A stretch of DNA of 57,628 nt, taken from NCBI GenBank assembly GCA_023256495.1, contig JAGDXY010000005.1, forward strand, positions 14,485 through 72,112, read 5' to 3'. The position numbers were made by a program, and so were the translations under genes. Below, piece after piece: positions 14,984-43,334 of the stretch. Every line of letters begins with the position of its first letter. Position 1 is the stretch's first letter. The stretch is from Candidatus Micrarchaeota archaeon. GTDB lineage: Archaea; Micrarchaeota; Micrarchaeia; Micrarchaeales; CABMGC01. The notes under the pieces are model-generated. The model searched no databases, was not told the origin of the DNA, and saw nothing but the letters and a program-made list of their open reading frames with translations.

Positions 14984-16567
14984 ATGGAACAAAAAAGTGC
15001 TAACGATATTTTTAAAGAGTTTAAATCACATTCAATATCAGAATTCTTTAAAAGAAATAGCCAAATGCTAGGCTATGCTGGAAGAGTAAGATCATTGACT
15101 ACAGTAGTACATGAATATGTTACAAATTCATTGGATGCATGTGAAGAAGCAGGGATATTACCAGAGATATTTGTAGAGATTAAAGAAGTTGAAGAGAGTA
15201 AACATCTAGTAACAGTTAGAGATAATGGGCCTGGAATACCTTCGCAGTTTATAGGTAAGGCCCTAGCAAGTATTCTCTCTGGAACAAAATTCCATAGGTA
15301 TCTACAGCAAAGAGGCCAACAAGGAATAGGTGCAAGTGGCTGCACGCTATTTGCGCAGATAACTACAGGCAAAGGGGTGCATGTAGTTTCTAGAACAAGC
15401 TCAGAAAGCTTTGAATGTGATGTTGCAATAGATGTTAACAAAAATGAACCTATTATTACAAACTTTAAGAATATAGAAGGTAATGGTTTTACAGGATTAG
15501 AGATTATTGGATTATTTGGTGAAACAAAATATGAAAATAGCGAAAGAGGTGTATTAGAGTATTTGAAAAGAACAGCATTAGTTAATCCACATGCAAATAT
15601 AACATTAAAAGATCCAGATGGCAAAGAGCATGTTTTTGTAAGAACATCTAATATATTGCCTGAGAGACCAAAAGAGTCAAAGCCACATCCTTTAGGTATA
15701 ACAACAAGCGATTTAATGTATCTAGCGGAGTTAAGTAGTTCTAGATATATATCAACATTTTTAGTAGAATCATTATCTAGAGTAACAAAACAGAAAATCG
15801 ATGAACTAAAAAACTTAATACCTGATATTGATTTAGAAAAATCGCCACATGAATTGACTTGGGAAGAAGGAGAAAAGATAGTTAGAGCTCTAAAGAAAAT
15901 AAAATGGATGGCGCCAGAAACAGATACCTTATCATTAATAGGAAAAGAGCAAATAGAAAAGGCAATAAGTGCTATATTGATGCCAGAATTTGTCTCAACT
16001 ACTCAAAGGAGACCTAGAGTATACATGGGGGGTATACCTTTCGTTGTAGAAGCTGCTATAGCCTATGGCGGTAAAGCAGGTAAAGAAAGGGAAGAATTTA
16101 GGGGTGGTGAGATATTAAGATTTGCAAATAAAGTACCTTTGTTGTTTGATAGCGCAAATTGTGCGATAACAGAAGCAGTTAAAAGTATAGATTGGTCTCG
16201 TTATGGGATAAAGAATTTTGATGAAGAGCCTGTAAGTGTTTTAGTAAACATATCGAGTGTTTATGTGCCTTATTCTGGTGTAGGAAAACAAGCAGTAGCA
16301 GAAGAAGAGGAAATTATAGATGAAATAAAACTAGCTGTTATGGAATGCGCTAGAGATCTACAAAGATATCTTAATGGTGTAAAAAGGAGAAGCGTACAGG
16401 AATCAAAATATAAAACTATAATGAGATATGTTAATCAATTATCAGATGATCTTAGCGCAATTACAAGAGTTAGTAAAGATGAAATAAAAGAAAAATTAAT
16501 ATCAATATTAAAGGAACATTATTCTGGTCTATTTGAAGAAGAGACAAATGAGACTAAAGATAATTAG
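14984..16567 (+). CDS. top6B: DNA topoisomerase VI subunit B
   Basis: SISEFFKRNSQMLGY; GHKL/Bergerat motifs VHEYVTNSLDA and VRDNGPGIP; a transducer region follows. ATG 14984 is preferred over the GTG at 14975. Confidence 0.93.
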   Translation: MEQKSANDIFKEFKSHSISEFFKRNSQMLGYAGRVRSLTTVVHEYVTNSLDACEEAGILPEIFVEIKEVEESKHLVTVRDNGPGIPSQFIGKALASILSGTKFHRYLQQRGQQGIGASGCTLFAQITTGKGVHVVSRTSSESFECDVAIDVNKNEPIITNFKNIEGNGFTGLEIIGLFGETKYENSERGVLEYLKRTALVNPHANITLKDPDGKEHVFVRTSNILPERPKESKPHPLGITTSDLMYLAELSSSRYISTFLVESLSRVTKQKIDELKNLIPDIDLEKSPHELTWEEGEKIVRALKKIKWMAPETDTLSLIGKEQIEKAISAILMPEFVSTTQRRPRVYMGGIPFVVEAAIAYGGKAGKEREEFRGGEILRFANKVPLLFDSANCAITEAVKSIDWSRYGIKNFDEEPVSVLVNISSVYVPYSGVGKQAVAEEEEIIDEIKLAVMECARDLQRYLNGVKRRSVQESKYKTIMRYVNQLSDDLSAITRVSKDEIKEKLISILKEHYSGLFEEETNETKDN

Positions 16568-18794
16568 ATATTTCATTTACAGGGATTATTGTAATTATAT
16601 TTTGATATATGCCAAGTCTTATTATGCTCATATTCGGATCATTGCTTCTATGTATCTCTCTCATAAGCTCATCTGCTACCTCCTGCTTTAATGTAACTAT
16701 AAAGACCTTTTCATTTCCAATAGGTATTGGTTTAAGTTTTTTAGATTCAGATGAATAAATTATTATATAGAATTTTGTATTATTTTTCACAACTTCTATA
16801 TCTGCAATATCGCTCTTATCTAGTTCAGTAAATAACAGAGAATGCGATACGAAATAATCTCTGAGTTTTCTAAATATTACCAAATATTCTGCATCGTGAC
16901 CAGACTCACTTATCCATTGTGTTGGTATATAATAATCTTCTACCTTCTTTACCAGACCCATCGAAACTAATAGATCTAAGTTCTCTTCAAGATTTTTTGT
17001 TGTAGTCGCAAGAGGTAAATTATTATACCTCATAAATGTACTCAATCCATTTTTTATTTCACTTATTGTAAGAGGCATATACTTCCATTTGAACAAGTTG
17101 TTTACTTTACTAAAGACACTCATAAAATCTTCTTTCTTTATATGCACTATAGATGCGTTTGTTTTTGGAAAAGACGGAACATCTATAAAATATTGGTCTA
17201 CAGGAGGATTTCTAAGCATTACATTCAAAAAGACAATTACAATTAACGCTATAAAGAATTCTATATAAAGTGGTGGTATAATAAAGCCTTTTGGAGAAAA
17301 TGTAGAAGAGTAGTTAAAAGTAAAATTGAATATTGTAATTTGAAAGGTTTGATTTCCAGTAGGTATAAATGCGCTTGTTGGCAGCGAATAATATATAATG
17401 CCATTTCTAACAGTACCATTTTGTGTATATTCTTTATTTATGCTAATAGAATAAGATACATTCGATACTGTTTGGCCAGCACTAGATACAAAAAATTCAA
17501 ATGTTTTGTTTGAGAAATTCATTGATATAGGATAAATAGAAACTGGAGCTATGTAAAAAGAACCAACAGTAATTGTCTTATTTGAAAAGTTTTTAACTTC
17601 AGCAATATAAAAACCAGGAGGAAAATTAAATGGAATGTAATCTACTATAGATAAAGATACATTGAAGAATCCTAAGTAAAAATATTTGTATGGCTTATCA
17701 GTTGAATTTATTATTTCTAGACTAAATGTATTAACTGCATTTGACTTATTGAATATAGAAACATAAATTGGCTCTAAAGAAGATAAAGGCACTTCAGCAG
17801 GTATAGATATGTAACCAAGATTTGGCATTGTTGCATGAAATGAAGTTATATATTCATTTTTATTCAATGAATTTCCATAGTTAAAGTACAGAACTACAAA
17901 TACATTGCTTACGTTTTCTGGACTATAATGAATTTTAGAAAATGAAAATAATAAGGAGCTTAAGCCTTTTGATAAAGATAAATTTTGCGAATAAAAACCG
18001 TAATTTTGAATATAAAGGTATCTGTTTACTATAAGATTGCCTATATCATGAGCCATAAGGGTTACATTTGGCCAACTAAAGGTTGGATAATTTGAAAATG
18101 CAATTATCTTACCATTACTTATATTAAAATAGGTAAATTGATTAACATATATAGGGCCTGAGCTACGATTTCCAAAAGCAAATGTCATGTTTCTAAAGTA
18201 ATAGCTAGAGTTTATTTGAATGGAAGCACTATTTATAGGGTAGTATTGTATTTGTGGAAGTTGATCAAGAAGATAAGATGGTGTTACATATATAACACCA
18301 TTAGGACCAACAGTATAATTCAATGCCCTTCCTATATATATTATAGTATCTCCTTTCTTAAATAAAGAATTTAAATAATTAAACATATAGCTTGGCATTA
18401 AACCAGATCCGATTATTATTATTGAGTTATTTGGTGTTAAATTTAGCATATTTGGGTTTATTAATGATGCATTTCTATAACCATGATCTGATAAAAACTT
18501 ATTCAATGAATAAGTAAATGCATATATATTGTAGCAAAATACGCAATACGTTGTGGTATTTAAGACATATATCTGTTTATTAGGATTGCTTAAAAACAGC
18601 TTTGCAGTTAAATTAAGATGTGTTAAATTCATTGTTGAATAATTTAAAAAAACATAAGGTACTAATAAGCTTTTGTTATAAATAGATAAACCATATTTTA
18701 TGTTATTTAATTTAAAATATGGTGCGCCGATAGGTTTGGCGGTAATCTTAATTGAACTAATTGATACATAAATAAAGCTAATTATTAATATCAA
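16554..18794 (-). CDS. 746-aa bitopic surface protein, sequon-rich ectodomain plus cytoplasmic wHTH-like domain
   Basis: N-terminal hydrophobic signal/anchor. A ~500-aa region is dense in N-x-S/T. One internal TM (LYIEFFIALIVIVFLNVML) is followed by a ~210-aa C-terminal domain containing LATTTKNLEENLDLLVSMGLVKKVEDYYIP. Confidence 0.7.
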   Translation of the reverse strand: MILIISFIYVSISSIKITAKPIGAPYFKLNNIKYGLSIYNKSLLVPYVFLNYSTMNLTHLNLTAKLFLSNPNKQIYVLNTTTYCVFCYNIYAFTYSLNKFLSDHGYRNASLINPNMLNLTPNNSIIIIGSGLMPSYMFNYLNSLFKKGDTIIYIGRALNYTVGPNGVIYVTPSYLLDQLPQIQYYPINSASIQINSSYYFRNMTFAFGNRSSGPIYVNQFTYFNISNGKIIAFSNYPTFSWPNVTLMAHDIGNLIVNRYLYIQNYGFYSQNLSLSKGLSSLLFSFSKIHYSPENVSNVFVVLYFNYGNSLNKNEYITSFHATMPNLGYISIPAEVPLSSLEPIYVSIFNKSNAVNTFSLEIINSTDKPYKYFYLGFFNVSLSIVDYIPFNFPPGFYIAEVKNFSNKTITVGSFYIAPVSIYPISMNFSNKTFEFFVSSAGQTVSNVSYSISINKEYTQNGTVRNGIIYYSLPTSAFIPTGNQTFQITIFNFTFNYSSTFSPKGFIIPPLYIEFFIALIVIVFLNVMLRNPPVDQYFIDVPSFPKTNASIVHIKKEDFMSVFSKVNNLFKWKYMPLTISEIKNGLSTFMRYNNLPLATTTKNLEENLDLLVSMGLVKKVEDYYIPTQWISESGHDAEYLVIFRKLRDYFVSHSLLFTELDKSDIADIEVVKNNTKFYIIIYSSESKKLKPIPIGNEKVFIVTLKQEVADELMREIHRSNDPNMSIIRLGIYQNIITIIPVNEISNYL

Positions 18795-32530: not shown

Positions 32531-32881
32531 ATGATAGGAAAAGAAGTTAAAAGTAGTTCATATCTTGCATTAGGTGAAGTAAAGGAATTATTAGAAGAAA
32601 GGAAGAAGGAAGGAGAGTTAGGCTATGAGCAGCTAGAAGCATATGAATATGTAAAGAAGTTTGCAAAACTCAATGCAAAAGAATCTAGAGAATTAATAGA
32701 AAAGATAATGAATTATAGCATTAGCGAAAAGGCAGCAGCAATTATAGCAAATATATTGCCAGATAATCCATTACAAGTAAAGCAAATATTGAGCATTGAA
32801 AAGAATGAAGTAAATGATGAGATAGTTAGCAAGATAATAGAGATAGTAAAAGAATATAGTGGTAAGCATGGTGATAAATAA
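32531..32881 (+). CDS. rpoF: DNA-directed RNA polymerase subunit F (Rpo4)
   Basis: MIGKEV...LGEVKELLEERKKEG...AYEYVKKFAKLNAKESRELIEKIM...ANILPDN follows the Rpo4/RpoF pattern. It is followed by a DUF655-like gene, as is common in archaea. Confidence 0.8.
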   Translation: MIGKEVKSSSYLALGEVKELLEERKKEGELGYEQLEAYEYVKKFAKLNAKESRELIEKIMNYSISEKAAAIIANILPDNPLQVKQILSIEKNEVNDEIVSKIIEIVKEYSGKHGDK

Positions 32882-33441
32882 TGGATCAACTAGAGGAGTA
32901 TGCTTTAGTATTATCTTATCTACCTACAGGAAAGCCTACTTCACCAAAACCAGAGCCGTTGGTCCAATTAATTGGTGAATCTTATTTTACTTTACTAGAA
33001 GCTATTCCAAAAGTAAATGATATAAAAATTGGCGAGAGAGTATATATAGGCAAAGGAGATAGACCTAAAATAAAGATAATAAAAGGAAGAATAAGCTATA
33101 ATGATCTAACACAAGGGGCTATAGATGAGCTTCCTAGGCTTATAGAAGAAATAATAAGAAGCAATGAGAAGAGATTTGTTGACTTTTTTAACAACGCTGG
33201 CCCAATAAACATAAGAATGCATTCTTTAGAGCTACTTCCAGGCATAGGAAAAAGACATTTGGATGCTATATTAAAGGAAAGAGAAACAAAGCCTTTTGAA
33301 AGCTTTGAAGACATTGAAAAAAGGGTTCCTCTACTCTCAAATCCTGTAAAACTACTTGTAGAGAGGGTATTAATAGAGCTAAAAGGAGAGACTAGATTCT
33401 ATATATTAACAAAACAGTTCCAGAAAAAAGAATTTAGCTAA
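32881..33441 (+). CDS. DUF655-family protein (OB-like plus HhH)
   Basis: VLSYLPTGKP...LVQLIGESYFTLLEA at the N-terminus and an HhH motif LELLPGIGKRHLDAILKER. Its start overlaps the rpoF stop (TAATG). Confidence 0.75.
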   Translation: MDQLEEYALVLSYLPTGKPTSPKPEPLVQLIGESYFTLLEAIPKVNDIKIGERVYIGKGDRPKIKIIKGRISYNDLTQGAIDELPRLIEEIIRSNEKRFVDFFNNAGPINIRMHSLELLPGIGKRHLDAILKERETKPFESFEDIEKRVPLLSNPVKLLVERVLIELKGETRFYILTKQFQKKEFS

Positions 33442-33724
33442 GCTTCTCTAGATGTAATGGTTCTACTATGAGCTTCCTTTTTGCATGCTTGCCTAGCTCT
33501 ATCTCTACTACATAAGCTTTTCCTCTCTTTTCAATTATAGTACCTACCCTGCCTCTATATTTTGGATGTGGTATTGTCTTGTCTACCTTTTTTGGTAATA
33601 TAACTACTTTATCTCCTACTTTAAGATCCTTTATATAATCAGTAATTGTAAGTGTTGATGGCTTATGGTGCTTTACCAATGTTCTACTTCTACCTGATAA
33701 AAGACCTCTTGAGCGCTCTACCAT
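33434..33724 (-). CDS. rpl21e: ribosomal protein L21e
   Basis: MVERSRGLLSGRSRT...VGDKVVI...HPKYRGRVGTIIEKRGKAYVVEI matches L21e. ATG 33724 is preferred over the TTG at 33733. Confidence 0.9.
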   Translation of the reverse strand: MVERSRGLLSGRSRTLVKHHKPSTLTITDYIKDLKVGDKVVILPKKVDKTIPHPKYRGRVGTIIEKRGKAYVVEIELGKHAKRKLIVEPLHLEKLS

Positions 33725-33796
33725 ATTTATCAAATAAGTTTTTGTAATAAAGATATTTATAAATATTACTGATTTAAATTTATTTTAGGGATTTAC

Positions 33797-34087
33797 ATGA
33801 CAAAGATATTAAAGCCAAAATTTAAAATAGAGAATATAGTAGCAAGTGCAGATTTAGGTGTAGAATTAGATCTATATGGCATAGCAAAGGCGTCAAAGAA
33901 TGTAGATTATGAGCCTGAGCAGTTTCCAGGAGCAATATGTAAAATAGATAAGCCAAAAGCATCTTTATTACTATTTAAAAATGGTAAGATTATATGCACA
34001 GGTGCCAAATCTGAAAAGGAAATAGAAGAGGCATTAGAGAAAGTAATAAAGATTGTAGAGGGCCATACGTTAACTGCCCCTCAATAG
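33797..34087 (+). CDS. single-repeat TATA-box-binding-protein-like protein (half-TBP, 96 aa)
   Basis: IENIVASADLGVELDL, YEPEQFPGAICKI and LLLFKNGKIICTGAKSEKE are the hallmark segments of one TBP repeat. The ORF ends after one repeat and the next gene is on the other strand. Confidence 0.8.
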   Translation: MTKILKPKFKIENIVASADLGVELDLYGIAKASKNVDYEPEQFPGAICKIDKPKASLLLFKNGKIICTGAKSEKEIEEALEKVIKIVEGHTLTAPQ

Positions 34088-34662
34088 TTTATCTTATTTT
34101 TTATTCTTTTTATAAAATAAACAAATACAAGATACAATATAATAAGGAATATTGCTACGAATATTATTGTATTGAATAAATTTAATGAAAGCGCATAGTA
34201 GCCAAATGCAATGAGCAATGCATTATATAAAAGAATGCCAATCAATGAAAATACAGAAAATCTTATCACATTCATCTTTGCAAAACCAGCAGGAAAACTT
34301 ATTAAGCCCCTTATTACAGGGACAAATCTACTTATAAGCACTGTAGGCTCACCCTCTCTTTCAAAGAATCTATAAACCATATCTAGATGCTCTTTCTTAA
34401 TCTTAAAACGCATTGCATGCCTATAAACAAATTCTTTATTCAAAAAGAAGCCTATATAATAATCAATCATTATTCCAAAAAAAGAGCCTATTACTGATAC
34501 AATATAAGAGACAAATGGATTTATAATACCGCTCTTTGATAAAAAACCAATACTAGGTAAAACTATCTCACTTGGTATAGGAAGTGATGCAGATTCAAGG
34601 AGCATTAATAGGAATATGCCTAAATAGCCATAAGTTTGTATTATGCTTACTATATCAAACAT
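34081..34662 (-). CDS. DedA-family membrane protein
   Basis: YGYLGIFLLMLLESASLPIPSEIVLP and RFVPVIRGLISFPAG motifs, with multiple TM helices. Confidence 0.85.
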   Translation of the reverse strand: MFDIVSIIQTYGYLGIFLLMLLESASLPIPSEIVLPSIGFLSKSGIINPFVSYIVSVIGSFFGIMIDYYIGFFLNKEFVYRHAMRFKIKKEHLDMVYRFFEREGEPTVLISRFVPVIRGLISFPAGFAKMNVIRFSVFSLIGILLYNALLIAFGYYALSLNLFNTIIFVAIFLIILYLVFVYFIKRIKNKINY

Positions 34663-34738: not shown

Positions 34739-35743
34739 ATGAAAATAATAAGATTCAAAGACAATATACTAAGAATAAAAGTTGATTCAATAGAGGATCT
34801 TTATCTGCTAGAGAGAATAATAAATAAAGGAGATAAAGTAAAGGCAAAGACATTAAGAAAATATAAGTCGCAAGAAAATGATAAAGGCGAGCTTAAAGAA
34901 GTAATATTAAAAATAGAAGTTGAAAAGGTTGAACTAGACAAGAATAATGCAATATTGAGGATAAATGGCCAAATAATAGCTGGCAAGCCAGAGCAATTTA
35001 TAACACTGCACGCATATCATACAATAAATGTAAAACAAAAAAGCATTATAGAAATAGAAAAGAGTGAATGGAAGAGGTATATATTGGATAAGATAATAGA
35101 ACAAAGCAAAAAAGCAAAAGAACCTAAAATAGGCATAGTAGTATTAGATGATGAAACTGCTACAATAGGAGAAGTAAGCGATATTGGTATTGTAATAAAA
35201 AGCGAGATAGAAAGCAAACTTAGCAAGAGAATGAGCCAAAAGCTATTTGATGAGGCAAAAAATAGATATTTTGAATCTATTAAAAAGGTAATAGAAAACA
35301 TTAGTACAAATATAATAGCAATTGGTGGCCCTGGTTTTATGAAAGACGAATTGTATAAATTCCTAAAAGAATCAGATATTAAAAAGGATTTTATTCTGGC
35401 TTATGCAAGCGATGTTGGAAGATCAGGAATAAAAGAGGTATTGAATAACGAAAGTGTAAAAAGATTCTTTGCAAAAAGCTTATTGCAAAAAGAGTTTAAT
35501 TCTTTAGATGAGCTATTCAAAGAATTAGTAATAGGTAAGGGCATAACAAAAAAAGATGAAATAAAGGAGCGTATCTATGAAGTTAAAAAGATCCTTGTAA
35601 ATGATAGTGTATTAAATAATGAAGAAATAAAATCAATTTTAGATATGGCAGATAAGCTTGGTATTCCTATAGAAATTTTCAATAGCAATGATGATGCAGG
35701 AAAACAATTGAAAGGTTTAGGAGATATAGTAGCATTAACCTAA
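34739..35743 (+). CDS. pelA: Pelota (Dom34) mRNA-surveillance/ribosome-rescue factor
   Basis: N-terminal pattern KDNILRIKVDSIEDLYLLERIINKGDKV, and GGPGF in the central domain. The 334-aa size is typical. Confidence 0.85.
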   Translation: MKIIRFKDNILRIKVDSIEDLYLLERIINKGDKVKAKTLRKYKSQENDKGELKEVILKIEVEKVELDKNNAILRINGQIIAGKPEQFITLHAYHTINVKQKSIIEIEKSEWKRYILDKIIEQSKKAKEPKIGIVVLDDETATIGEVSDIGIVIKSEIESKLSKRMSQKLFDEAKNRYFESIKKVIENISTNIIAIGGPGFMKDELYKFLKESDIKKDFILAYASDVGRSGIKEVLNNESVKRFFAKSLLQKEFNSLDELFKELVIGKGITKKDEIKERIYEVKKILVNDSVLNNEEIKSILDMADKLGIPIEIFNSNDDAGKQLKGLGDIVALT

Positions 35744-40773: not shown

Positions 40774-41556
40774 ATGAAGCTAATGTTAATTAATTTTATA
40801 ATTTTCTTTGCAATATCTCTTGCAATATTAAATGCAGGTACTGTAACTTTAACAGGCACATGCTTGCTAAAAGGCAATAATCTTACTTTTAGCTTAATAA
40901 ATAATGGCAATGAAAGCGCATTAAATCTAATAATACAACCAAATTATGTTGGAGTGCAAGGTAATAGTTCTTACCTGTTACTAAGGTATTTAAATCCAAA
41001 TCAGCCATACAATATAACACTTCCTTTAAAAATTTACAATAAGGGCTCATTTCTAGCTTATTTTAATGTAACATATGAAGCTGGAACTAATGTTTATTCT
41101 GCGGTATTTCCATGCCTATTGGCTGAAAATAATAGTTTTGGATCTTTTGTATATACATTAGTAAATGAAAGTGAAAAAAACAATAATTATCTAATTACTG
41201 TAAATCTAACAAACCAGGGGCCAAAGCCGATAAATGTTTCTGTTTATCTATTAATACCAAAGACATTTTCTGCAAAGTATGTAAGTACTAATATAACATT
41301 ATATCCAAACAAGAATAGAGAAGTAAACTTCTCATTTAGTGGAGAAAATGGGTATAATAGCTTTGCTTTAGGTATAGGAACTTATTATGTATTAGATAAT
41401 AAAAGCTACGCAACACTGAATATTTTAAGTATAGCACCAAAAAATACTAAAAGCGACTATACTTACATAATTGCTGGTGGCATATTCTTTATAATTGCTG
41501 TATTATTTGGTCTTTATATAAGAAAGATAATATCAAAAAAGATAAACAAAAGTTAG
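40774..41556 (+). CDS. secreted sequon-rich protein with C-terminal TM anchor (260 aa)
   Basis: N-terminal signal MKLMLINFIIFFAISLAILNA, many N-x-S/T sites, and a C-terminal YIIAGGIFFIIAVLFGLYI followed by a basic tail. Confidence 0.6.
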   Translation: MKLMLINFIIFFAISLAILNAGTVTLTGTCLLKGNNLTFSLINNGNESALNLIIQPNYVGVQGNSSYLLLRYLNPNQPYNITLPLKIYNKGSFLAYFNVTYEAGTNVYSAVFPCLLAENNSFGSFVYTLVNESEKNNNYLITVNLTNQGPKPINVSVYLLIPKTFSAKYVSTNITLYPNKNREVNFSFSGENGYNSFALGIGTYYVLDNKSYATLNILSIAPKNTKSDYTYIIAGGIFFIIAVLFGLYIRKIISKKINKS

Positions 41557-43334
41557 GTATTTGAATAATTGAGTATATAGTAAAAAGCAACAGGCCCTTG
41601 TGATGTAGGATACTTTATTATAAGCTTCATGTTATATTTGCTAACATATGATGAGCATAAGTTGTTATATGGGGGTACAACGCACCAATAACCATAATCA
41701 AAAATATAACAGCTATAATTGCTAGTTAATTCATGTGATTCAAAATAACCTATTTGCGCTGCATTTTTACCATATTCAAAAAATATGTCTGGAGTAAAAG
41801 AGAATACAAGACAATTGTTTGGTATGTAATTTTGATAATTAAACTCAAATTGACTTGCGTTATAAATTACAGCTTGTTGTGGCATTTGTGAAGGCTTCAA
41901 AGAGAAAGTAGGTATAGTAAATACAAAGTATATAGATGCTAATAAAAGCACAGAGGCTGAATAAATTTTTTTATCCTTGATAAAGAGTGTTAATATAAGC
42001 ATAATTATTACAAAAACAATTTGAGGAAATAATGAGGTATAGCTAATATTAACAAATGAAAATATAGGTGTATTGTATATTCTAAAGTTATTATATATTA
42101 CATAAGCAAATAATAGCAATAGAACAATTGAGGCAATAAATACATTTTTACTATATGTTTTATCAGCAAAAAATAAAGGTAAAGAAAATAAAATCAAAGA
42201 TGGAACTAATGATAGCATAAATCTTGAATCTACACCATATGTAGCAAAGCCTGCATAATAAACAGAGTAGAATAAAAAGTATGCAATAAAAATAAAACCA
42301 GGGATTAAGAGATTTTTCTTATTAAAGCTGCTAATTGCAATGAATATCCCAAATAAAGCAAGTATAAATAAAGTTGGTGAGAATATAGCAGGATAATATT
42401 CAACAAAATCAAAATATCCATTTAAATATTCAAAGTTTATATATGAAAAGTTTAAAAGATAAGAAAAAGAAATTAAAGGGGAATTTCCTTGGCCATAAGT
42501 GGGATTAGAATATTCGTATCCAATGAAATAAATCTCTGGTGCTATAAGGAAGATAAATAAAATTAAAATAGGCAAATAATTATCATTATCAAATAGTTCG
42601 ATGAAAAAATTTTTATCATATAAAATAAACAATATAATATATATAAAAAGAAGTAGAATAGACTCAACACGCATATATAGAGTTATGCCAAGTATAGACA
42701 AAAAAGCTAGTAATGAATATTTTGTCTTTCTCTCTATGTTATATAAGAAAAATAGCATTGAAAGTATAGAAAAGAACATGAATGTTAAATCAGGTATTGC
42801 TTGTGTTCTAGCCCATATATAAATTTCTGGCTGTATTGCAAAAAGCAATGAAGCAATACCAAAACTATACTTTTTATTTGTAAAAAGTATTGCTACTATT
42901 GCAATAGCTATTAATGAAAGCAAGCCTATAATAAATTGCAGATTAAATGCAGTATTTATTGAAGCGCCTCCGAAAAGAAAGGCAATTGCTATAATAAATG
43001 GTTCTCCTATAGGATCATGGTATATAGCATTTGAGAAGCATTTGTATAAATAGCCAGTACCATATTGGCACCATTCACCATTTAGATTATGCAATATATT
43101 TAGCGCTATACCTTGGTATATGTTTTCATCAAAATAGAGCTGCTCTACAGGCTGTACTAAAAATAGTCCTATGAAAATGTATATCAATACAGAAATCGAA
43201 AATATGATAATATCTAATTTTGATATATATGGCTTTAATCTCTTATAAATCCCTTTTCTTTCTTTAAAAATAGCTAAGAAAAATAATACATATAAAACAA
43301 TTAATGAGATTACAAATATATTGCCAATATCCAT
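41553..43334 (-). CDS. GT-C-fold polytopic glycosyltransferase (ArnT/PMT-like)
   Basis: More than 10 hydrophobic segments by eye. The first extracytoplasmic loop has the acidic motif YFDENIY. A soluble domain lies at the C-terminus. No WWDYG motif is present. Confidence 0.6.
   Translation of the reverse strand: MDIGNIFVISLIVLYVLFFLAIFKERKGIYKRLKPYISKLDIIIFSISVLIYIFIGLFLVQPVEQLYFDENIYQGIALNILHNLNGEWCQYGTGYLYKCFSNAIYHDPIGEPFIIAIAFLFGGASINTAFNLQFIIGLLSLIAIAIVAILFTNKKYSFGIASLLFAIQPEIYIWARTQAIPDLTFMFFSILSMLFFLYNIERKTKYSLLAFLSILGITLYMRVESILLLFIYIILFILYDKNFFIELFDNDNYLPILILFIFLIAPEIYFIGYEYSNPTYGQGNSPLISFSYLLNFSYINFEYLNGYFDFVEYYPAIFSPTLFILALFGIFIAISSFNKKNLLIPGFIFIAYFLFYSVYYAGFATYGVDSRFMLSLVPSLILFSLPLFFADKTYSKNVFIASIVLLLLFAYVIYNNFRIYNTPIFSFVNISYTSLFPQIVFVIIMLILTLFIKDKKIYSASVLLLASIYFVFTIPTFSLKPSQMPQQAVIYNASQFEFNYQNYIPNNCLVFSFTPDIFFEYGKNAAQIGYFESHELTSNYSCYIFDYGYWCVVPPYNNLCSSYVSKYNMKLIIKYPTSQGPVAFYYILNYSNT

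Follow-up and report, generated by a model that had tools for sequence, protein, structure and literature searches.

Within the window, by which we mean the whole 57,628-nucleotide stretch of Candidatus Micrarchaeota DNA analysed here, the frame at 33797..34087 (+) is intact, running over 96 codons from an ATG to a TAG, and its sequence contains the hallmark motifs of a TATA-box-binding protein (TBP). The gene, which we call half-TBP, stands among genes for a ribosomal protein, an RNA polymerase subunit, a membrane protein and Pelota, and the features of the locus are collected in Table 1. The source names of the homologues place the group in the Micrarchaeota, a DPANN phylum. Elsewhere in the window, two long open reading frames at 16557–18794 (−, 746 aa) and 41556–43334 (−, 593 aa) gave no Pfam match at E ≤ 1e-5.

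Table 1. Features at the half-TBP locus, in window coordinates
Feature	Position	Strand	Remarks
RpoF (Rpo4) and DUF655 genes	32531..33441	+	Part of the conserved slot
L21e ribosomal protein	33434..33733	−	Divergent neighbour, 63 bp upstream of half-TBP; marks the TBP slot
Perfect 14-nt palindrome ATATTTATAAATAT, TATA-like	33753..33766		Sole one in the 63-bp L21e/half-TBP gap (33734–33796)
Weak Shine-Dalgarno-like AGGGA	33787..33791	+	5 nt (33792–33796) before the ATG
Single-repeat TBP gene, 'A-type' half	33797..34087	+	96 aa plus TAG stop
TBP repeat proper	33818..34060	+	Residues 8–88; model strands S1–S5, helices H1 and H2
Stirrup motif and first DNA-inserting Phe, E39-P40-E41-Q42-F43	33911..33925	+	Aligned with solved TBPs
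Second DNA-inserting Phe, F60 (LLLFKNGK)	33974..33976	+	Alignment with solved TBPs
DedA/VTT-domain membrane protein	34081..34662	−	Convergent, 7-nt overlap with half-TBP
Pelota (eRF1 domains 1–3)	34739..35743	+	Downstream neighbour, kept within the family

The encoded protein is a single TBP repeat

The 96-residue protein contains one PF00352 repeat at residues 8–88 (106.7 bits, E 5.5e-31, with a cut-off of 22.9 bits), and the match covers profile positions 1–83 of 85. No Pfam family except PF00352 was found in it and no catalytic domain, and the protein stands alone. Against solved structures, it scored 83.1 bits to the N repeat and 76.8 bits to the C repeat of the M. jannaschii TBP (2Z8U), and 76.8 bits to the N repeat and 73.3 bits to the C repeat of the P. 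woesei TBP (1PCZ). An earlier note on this DNA had claimed exactly one TBP repeat with its hallmark segments, which the Pfam search, the reading frame and the motifs all bear out. Two tandem repeats in one chain are not found, as the protein has a single PF00352 stretch only; it is a member of the TBP repeat family that lies outside the canonical two-repeat architecture.

An AlphaFold2 model built with 96 homologues reached a mean pLDDT of 84.8, and about 90 over residues 21–90. Its strands (residues 14–19, 36–38, 46–50, 55–59 and 64–70) and helices (residues 26–32 and 73–87) follow the S1-H1-S2-S3-S4-S5-H2 order of the helix-grip alpha/beta fold of a TBP lobe. The model matches 44 TBP chains at E ≤ 1.3e-5 (TMq 0.71–0.84) and superposes on one TBP lobe with an rmsd of about 1.5 Å over about 83 columns, and the next folds to appear, the phosphoglucomutase C-domain and OGG1, do so only at E > 0.1 and TMq ≤ 0.55.

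The E39–F43 segment aligns with YEPEQFPG in both repeats of 2Z8U and in the C repeat of 1PCZ, while F43 and F60 align with the phenylalanines of QFPG and (I/L)F-x-SGK in 2Z8U and 1PCZ. F43, F60 and E39-P40-E41-Q42 are invariant among the 96 homologues. Following published TBP structures, we take F43 and F60 to be the phenylalanines that kink the DNA and E39–Q42 to be the stirrup that binds TFB. Because of the scores to solved TBP repeats, the fold match, these invariant residues and the orthologous locus described below, the gene is a TBP proper and not another TBP-fold family; the Pfam and fold searches both give TBP, and neither showed a better match to the glycosylase or RNase HIII N-domain families that the earlier note had named as alternatives.

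The gene is complete, and the assembly shows no other TBP repeat

The assembly of this organism comprises 605,534 bp in 28 contigs and is 87.7% complete. A Pfam search of the whole assembly at E ≤ 10 returned no TBP match besides 33797..34087, and a six-frame search of the 28 contigs with an HMM built from 68 relatives and run with filters off gave 146 bits at half-TBP and nothing else above 7.4 bits. Both searches thus leave half-TBP as the sole TBP repeat of the 605-kb assembly; the genome-wide search that the earlier note had proposed, for a full-length TBP or a second half, found neither. The claim that the locus leaves no room for a second repeat also stands, given that DedA overlaps the gene by 7 nt on the opposite strand and that no second repeat lies elsewhere in the assembly.

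The stop codon at 34085..34087, which had been marked for checking, is matched by a 725-nt Logan contig (run X1) that covers 33624–34348 with zero indels; this contig, at a depth of about 6, derives from the likely source hot-spring sample of the genome and is not an independent sample. It differs from the window at two sites, 34076 G>A and 34078 C>A, giving A94T. Since the contig crosses the stop without an indel, the stop codon is real. None of the sequencing runs listed for this sequence is an RNA run. One repeat per stop-to-stop frame is also the rule in the order, where it was found at 68 of 69 TBP loci taken from 40 genomes (this one and 39 relatives, with G038 left out), in frames of about 100–190 aa and one of 274 aa.

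Contigs of higher depth from the same sample, 553–1332 nt long, match the gene solely at 33900–33936 (37 nt, encoding YEPEQFPG), and their flanks diverge. As they share this stretch alone, the same community includes one or more further Micrarchaeota TBP genes whose core is nearly identical.

Half-TBP occupies the TBP slot

In the order, the A-type half lies in a slot of the form RpoF-DUF655-(L21e)-TBP-(DedA)-Pelota. At 14 of 14 further loci, drawn from 12 other families, TBP is divergent from L21e-RpoF-DUF655, and this holds for one-repeat and two-repeat genes alike. Since half-TBP sits at the slot that TBP occupies in both one- and two-repeat families, it corresponds by position to the normal TBP gene, as its orthologue, and is no additional, accessory copy. 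The slot also varies in its internal orientation: in a comparison of window positions 32531–33733 with loci L111–L124, RpoF-DUF655 is inverted relative to L21e in this family (RpoF+, DUF655+, L21e−), whereas in the other 11 families examined L21e, RpoF and DUF655 form one co-directional unit divergent from TBP.

The palindrome ATATTTATAAATAT lies about midway in the gap between L21e and half-TBP, with distances from its centre of 35.5 nt to the start codon of L21e (33724) and 37.5 nt to that of half-TBP (33797), and a TATAAATAcCTTT box is conserved at the matching position in family relatives. It may serve as a single shared TATA box for the two genes, a promoter function that we infer from the sequence. 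The palindromic box was considered as evidence for a symmetric TBP and dropped, since archaeal TATA boxes are near-palindromic in general and the genome is 70% A+T. At the position of the Shine-Dalgarno-like AGGGA, relatives have GTGGT or GTGAT.

Upstream regions across the genome (n = 224, intergenic) show an asymmetric A-rich stretch at −35 to −32 followed by TTTWAA at −30 to −25, with an A frequency of 0.58 at −34, T frequencies of 0.51–0.55 at −30 to −28 and W-A-A at −27 to −25, a signal that fits a BRE followed by a TATA box. It stands only 25–35 nt before the predicted starts, where start codons were called crudely, and many transcripts may be leaderless or have very short leaders.

Single-repeat TBPs are widespread in the Micrarchaeota

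A survey of related lineages for the same one-repeat form, another suggestion of the earlier note, found it to be common in both the order and the phylum. In the order set, made up of this genome and 40 relatives from three families, a TBP match was found in all 41 genomes, and a TFB with two cyclin repeats in 39 of the 41; the unpublished genome G038 enters these counts and those of the phylum sample but supplied no sequences. The only two-repeat locus among the 69 in the order is that of G019, where both repeats lie in one frame cut by a contig end. The phylum set was an even sample of 100 species with at least 90% completeness, 98 of which had a TBP match: 64 of these 98 have single-repeat genes only (families f1, f3, f7, f10, f11, f12, f14, f15, f16 and f17) and the other 34 carry a two-repeat gene in fused form (f4, f5, f6, f8, f9 and f13).

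One single-repeat gene and nothing else was found in 27 of the 98 species. Even at E ≤ 10, a single repeat was all that appeared in the single-contig genomes G018 and G058, and likewise in G003 (97% complete), G044 (98%) and G094 (100%), and the 51 species sampled from the two nearest families yielded no TBP with two repeats. Comparisons of the repeat among A-only genomes gave dN/dS values of 0.036–0.064, with synonymous sites near saturation, and the repeat is under strong purifying selection. At NCBI, the label of most single-repeat TBP genes is 'hypothetical protein'.

A second half in relatives and a gap in the assembly

Most genomes of the order carry two unlinked halves, types A and B. 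In the window's family, type B lies between a GT4 glycosyltransferase gene and a thermosome gene; it is about 100–130 aa long, is recognised by the diagnostic residues IQNIVVS, LH, GAIFR and IILFKNGKL, and retains the Phe pair and the EPEQ stirrup. It is present in 15 of the 24 other genomes of this family in the order set and in every sister-family genome with a TBP match. Members of the window's family in the phylum sample divide into 7 of 20 with B and 13 of 20 with A only, closed genomes being among the latter, so that relatives show both gene contents, A alone and A with B. Two B-type halves of the sister family, L060 (G030:C3) and L057 (G027:C2), lie in long open frames of 274 and 185 aa and may carry N-terminal extensions. 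The absence of B can be genuine: in G018, G003 and G020 it is so, because the genes that flank the B locus lie 111–870 bp apart with neither B nor the glycosyltransferase gene detected between them.

No B-type half was detected in the present assembly, in which the two genes that would flank it lie at contig ends, one at the end of C11 and the other where C26 starts. A B gene hidden in the C11–C26 break is possible, since only 196 nt precede the thermosome ATG on C26 and B begins 200–252 nt from that ATG in relatives. The assembly also lacks the glycosyltransferase gene, which is always found together with B, the end of C11 does not overlap the start of C26, and an exact-pattern scan with the thermosome start gave no match among the metagenome contigs, a set from which near-identical records may be missing. 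Right after the B-flank gene fl1, the last ~40 nt of C11 end inside a truncated tRNA-like sequence (GGGCCTGTAGCTTAGCCTGGTTGG...). No tRNA that could link C11 and C26 was found in the loci of relatives, and because relatives are without a tRNA there, a local rearrangement or insertion at the end of C11 may have broken the assembly.

TFB offers a gauge of how far such absences can be read. TFB is essential, and it was not found in this 87.7% complete assembly by its family PF00382; it must therefore lie in the unassembled part, where further missing genes are to be expected, and absence from the assembly is thus weak evidence. Taking the locus and its relatives together, we consider it rather likely that the organism truly has only this half.

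Natural fusions and the history of the repeat

Two-repeat TBPs of the Micrarchaeota (among them P0124, P0137 and P0169) reach 73% identity to the window protein. Within a fused Micrarchaeota TBP, the N repeat is 46–91% identical to the C repeat, compared with a median of 39% in 64 canonical TBPs, and this high identity points to re-duplication or homogenisation. The repeats of the A–A fusions P0121–P0124 are 84–91% identical; these proteins are nested in an A-only clade (bootstrap 91), with their N repeats forming a clade within their C repeats, and they thus stem from an A half that was recently duplicated in tandem and fused. Re-fusion is seen a second time in G019, whose sister genome G011 is A-only. 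The predicted fold of P0124 (pLDDT 90.6) is a complete saddle with TMt 0.83–0.92 to solved TBPs, and this predicted structure is the nearest available proxy for an A–A dimer.

In a FastTree phylogeny of 185 repeats, those of the Micrarchaeota all group together (SH-like 0.90). Most N and C repeats of canonical TBPs fall outside this group, with a few canonical sequences beside or inside it, and the A and B clades are sisters (SH-like 0.88). An N-vs-C HMM classifier, correct for 118 of 128 repeats in cross-validation, scores the window half as N-like at +3.4 bits, in a family range of +3.4 to +10.3. Most one-repeat families are N-like by the same classifier, the C repeats of fused Micrarchaeota genes are mixed, and B is ambiguous (−1.5 to +1.1 bits). 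A simple split of a canonical gene, with A derived from its N half and B from its C half, is unsupported, given the ambiguity of B and the sister relationship of A and B.

In a midpoint-rooted tree of L21e, RpoF and DUF655, the fused families form one clade (0.89) nested among one-repeat families, and at least nine nodes among the repeats join an all-N clade to an all-C clade of the same proteins. Read from short alignments with weak rooting, the trees are suggestive of a one-repeat ancestor of the phylum that came from an N repeat and was followed by several re-duplications; homogenisation of the repeats by gene conversion is possible. Because it is closer to the N- than to the C-terminal canonical repeat, half-TBP itself is probably secondarily reduced and not a relic. 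The likeness to an ancestral state of TBP drawn in the earlier note accordingly survives purely as an analogy, the N-like score suggesting secondary reduction.

The position of this genome is unstable across trees. It is basal, on a long branch and with weak support, in the TopoVI-B and three-protein trees, and nested among A-only genomes, again with weak support, in the TBP tree; the long basal branch is probably a composition artefact of its 29.9% GC.

Comparison with known systems

Half-TBP shares PF00352, the fold, the Phe pair and the stirrup with canonical archaeal TBPs (2Z8U; P. woesei 1PCZ/1AIS/1D3U; S. acidocaldarius 1MP9), and is about 45–50% identical to each of their repeats. Unlike them, it has one repeat per polypeptide, so that its saddle must be formed by two chains held together non-covalently, and a homodimer would lose the asymmetry between N and C repeats. 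With the fused Micrarchaeota TBPs it shares the L21e-RpoF-DUF655 slot (f4, f5, f8, f9 and f13), but those two-repeat proteins are covalently fused. The B-type half of the order is alike in having one repeat, the Phe pair and EPEQ, and differs from A in its own diagnostic residues and its different locus.

Stand-alone single TBP-fold domains of a similar size, about 90–100 aa, are known as TbpA in Halobacteria and as monopartite proteins in Thermococcales, where they are accessory and occur in genomes that also encode a full-length TBP; cells can do without TbpA, and the sequences from Thermococcales have moved far away from TBP (PMC3597702, Brindefalk et al. 2013). Compared by description, half-TBP differs from both in being the only TBP detected and in lying at the TBP locus, and a full-length TBP beside the half was found neither in this assembly nor in the closed relatives G018 and G058. 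The hypothetical homodimeric ancestor of TBP is a further parallel, as a lone repeat that needs to dimerise, and the re-fusions repeat the duplication–fusion step; unlike that ancestor, the half is N-repeat-like and the Micrarchaeota repeats form one clade, which fits secondary loss of a repeat. A monopartite TBP is still treated as a hypothetical prototype in a 2026 paper (PMC12917281). In the literature on one-repeat or divided TBPs of the Micrarchaeota and other DPANN archaea, we found no report of such a protein replacing the fused TBP; the nearest items are the study of accessory proteins in Euryarchaeota cited above (PMC3597702) and a broad remark on the conservation of TBP among DPANN archaea.

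A dimeric half-TBP as the probable TBP of the organism

Very likely, the 96-residue protein is the TBP of the organism and acts as a non-covalent dimer, with its own copy as the most likely partner and an A/B pair possible should a B gene lie in the assembly gap. A non-covalent dimer is the one reading that agrees with the retention of TFB in the lineage, the conserved TBP residues, the strong purifying selection on the repeat and the closed genomes that carry this one gene. Dimerisation, DNA binding and TFB recruitment are what we infer. Since a single lobe cannot form a saddle, two copies would have to associate, and they would do so through their central S1 strands, rebuilding a saddle of ten strands able to bend the TATA box. 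One Phe pair and one EPEQ stirrup would come from each subunit, and a homodimer would be a truly two-fold symmetric TBP. As both stirrups would then be identical, directionality would have to come from TFB and the BRE, and promoter polarity would be set entirely by TFB reading the BRE, which flanks the TATA box on a single side. Such a mechanism is plausible, as the BRE reportedly sets the polarity of archaeal promoters, a result attributed to Bell et al. in 1999. If paralogue B does lie in the assembly gap, an A/B heterodimer would be the alternative.

Such a heterodimer, with an unlinked B-type gene in the unassembled part of the genome, is the rival to be taken most seriously, though we think it unlikely in this organism. 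It draws on the presence of B in 7 of the 20 sampled family members and in the sister family, on the retained Phe pair and EPEQ stirrup of B, on the position of both B-locus flanks at contig ends, and on an assembly that lacks TFB as well. Against these stand the 13 of 20 family members that are A-only with closed genomes included, the missing companion glycosyltransferase gene, the tRNA that follows fl1 in place of that gene, and the TBP tree, which puts the genome among A-only genomes with weak support. The homodimer is most likely for this organism. That the gene is an artefact, a normal two-repeat gene shortened by a sequencing or assembly error or by recent pseudogene formation, is hardly credible: low sample coverage, with a contig depth of about 6, is all that speaks for it, whereas the Logan contig has no indel at the stop, no remnant of a repeat is left downstream, where DedA overlaps, or in any of the six frames, and the single-repeat architecture recurs in 64 species with a dN/dS of about 0.05.

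Two further readings would deny the half the role of TBP. The earlier note had considered a competitor of full-length TBP, and an accessory regulator or competitor beside a two-repeat TBP missed by an incomplete assembly would have a precedent in the single-domain proteins that exist beside full-length TBPs (PMC3597702); yet the half occupies the TBP slot itself, scores on a par with canonical repeats, unlike the divergent Thermococcales proteins, and is all that closed genomes carry, and neither this assembly nor any of the 51 species sampled from the two nearest families shows a separate two-repeat TBP, the exception in the order set being the one re-fused copy in G019. We regard this role as very improbable, and give as little credence to the idea that the half binds nucleic acids as a monomer in a role that is not that of TBP, in an organism where something else initiates transcription. 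Single TBP-fold domains do act alone in other families (PMC3597702; PMC12917281), and RNase HIII binds RNA/DNA hybrids through a lone TBP-like domain, but all TBP-specific residues of the half are invariant, TFB and BRE/TATA-like promoters are kept in the lineage, no alternative TBP was detected in closed genomes, and the natural fusions are predicted to give a canonical saddle.

Implications for the origin of TBP

To our knowledge, experiments on TBP have so far dealt exclusively with proteins in which two repeats are fused, and the idea that TBP began as a homodimer of single repeats has rested on symmetry of structure and sequence alone. The value of this window by itself is lowered by its incomplete assembly. 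For the lineage as a whole, we lean, with some reserve, towards a picture in which TBP is assembled from free half-size subunits, being in one-gene lineages a symmetric homodimer whose polarity comes wholly from TFB and the BRE, and in which one- and two-repeat forms have repeatedly replaced each other, leading from a one-repeat ancestor to the A/B pair, to the clade of tandem fused genes and to the recent A–A fusions. If true, these shifts between one- and two-repeat TBP would be a natural replay of the proposed duplication–fusion origin of TBP. The finding also bears on annotation, given the name under which most such genes stand at NCBI. A lineage with single-repeat TBP only, and with re-fusions nearby, would open questions of TBP origin to ordinary biochemistry: whether a symmetric TBP can initiate transcription directionally, what the covalent link and the N/C asymmetry are worth, and how easily two halves re-fuse.
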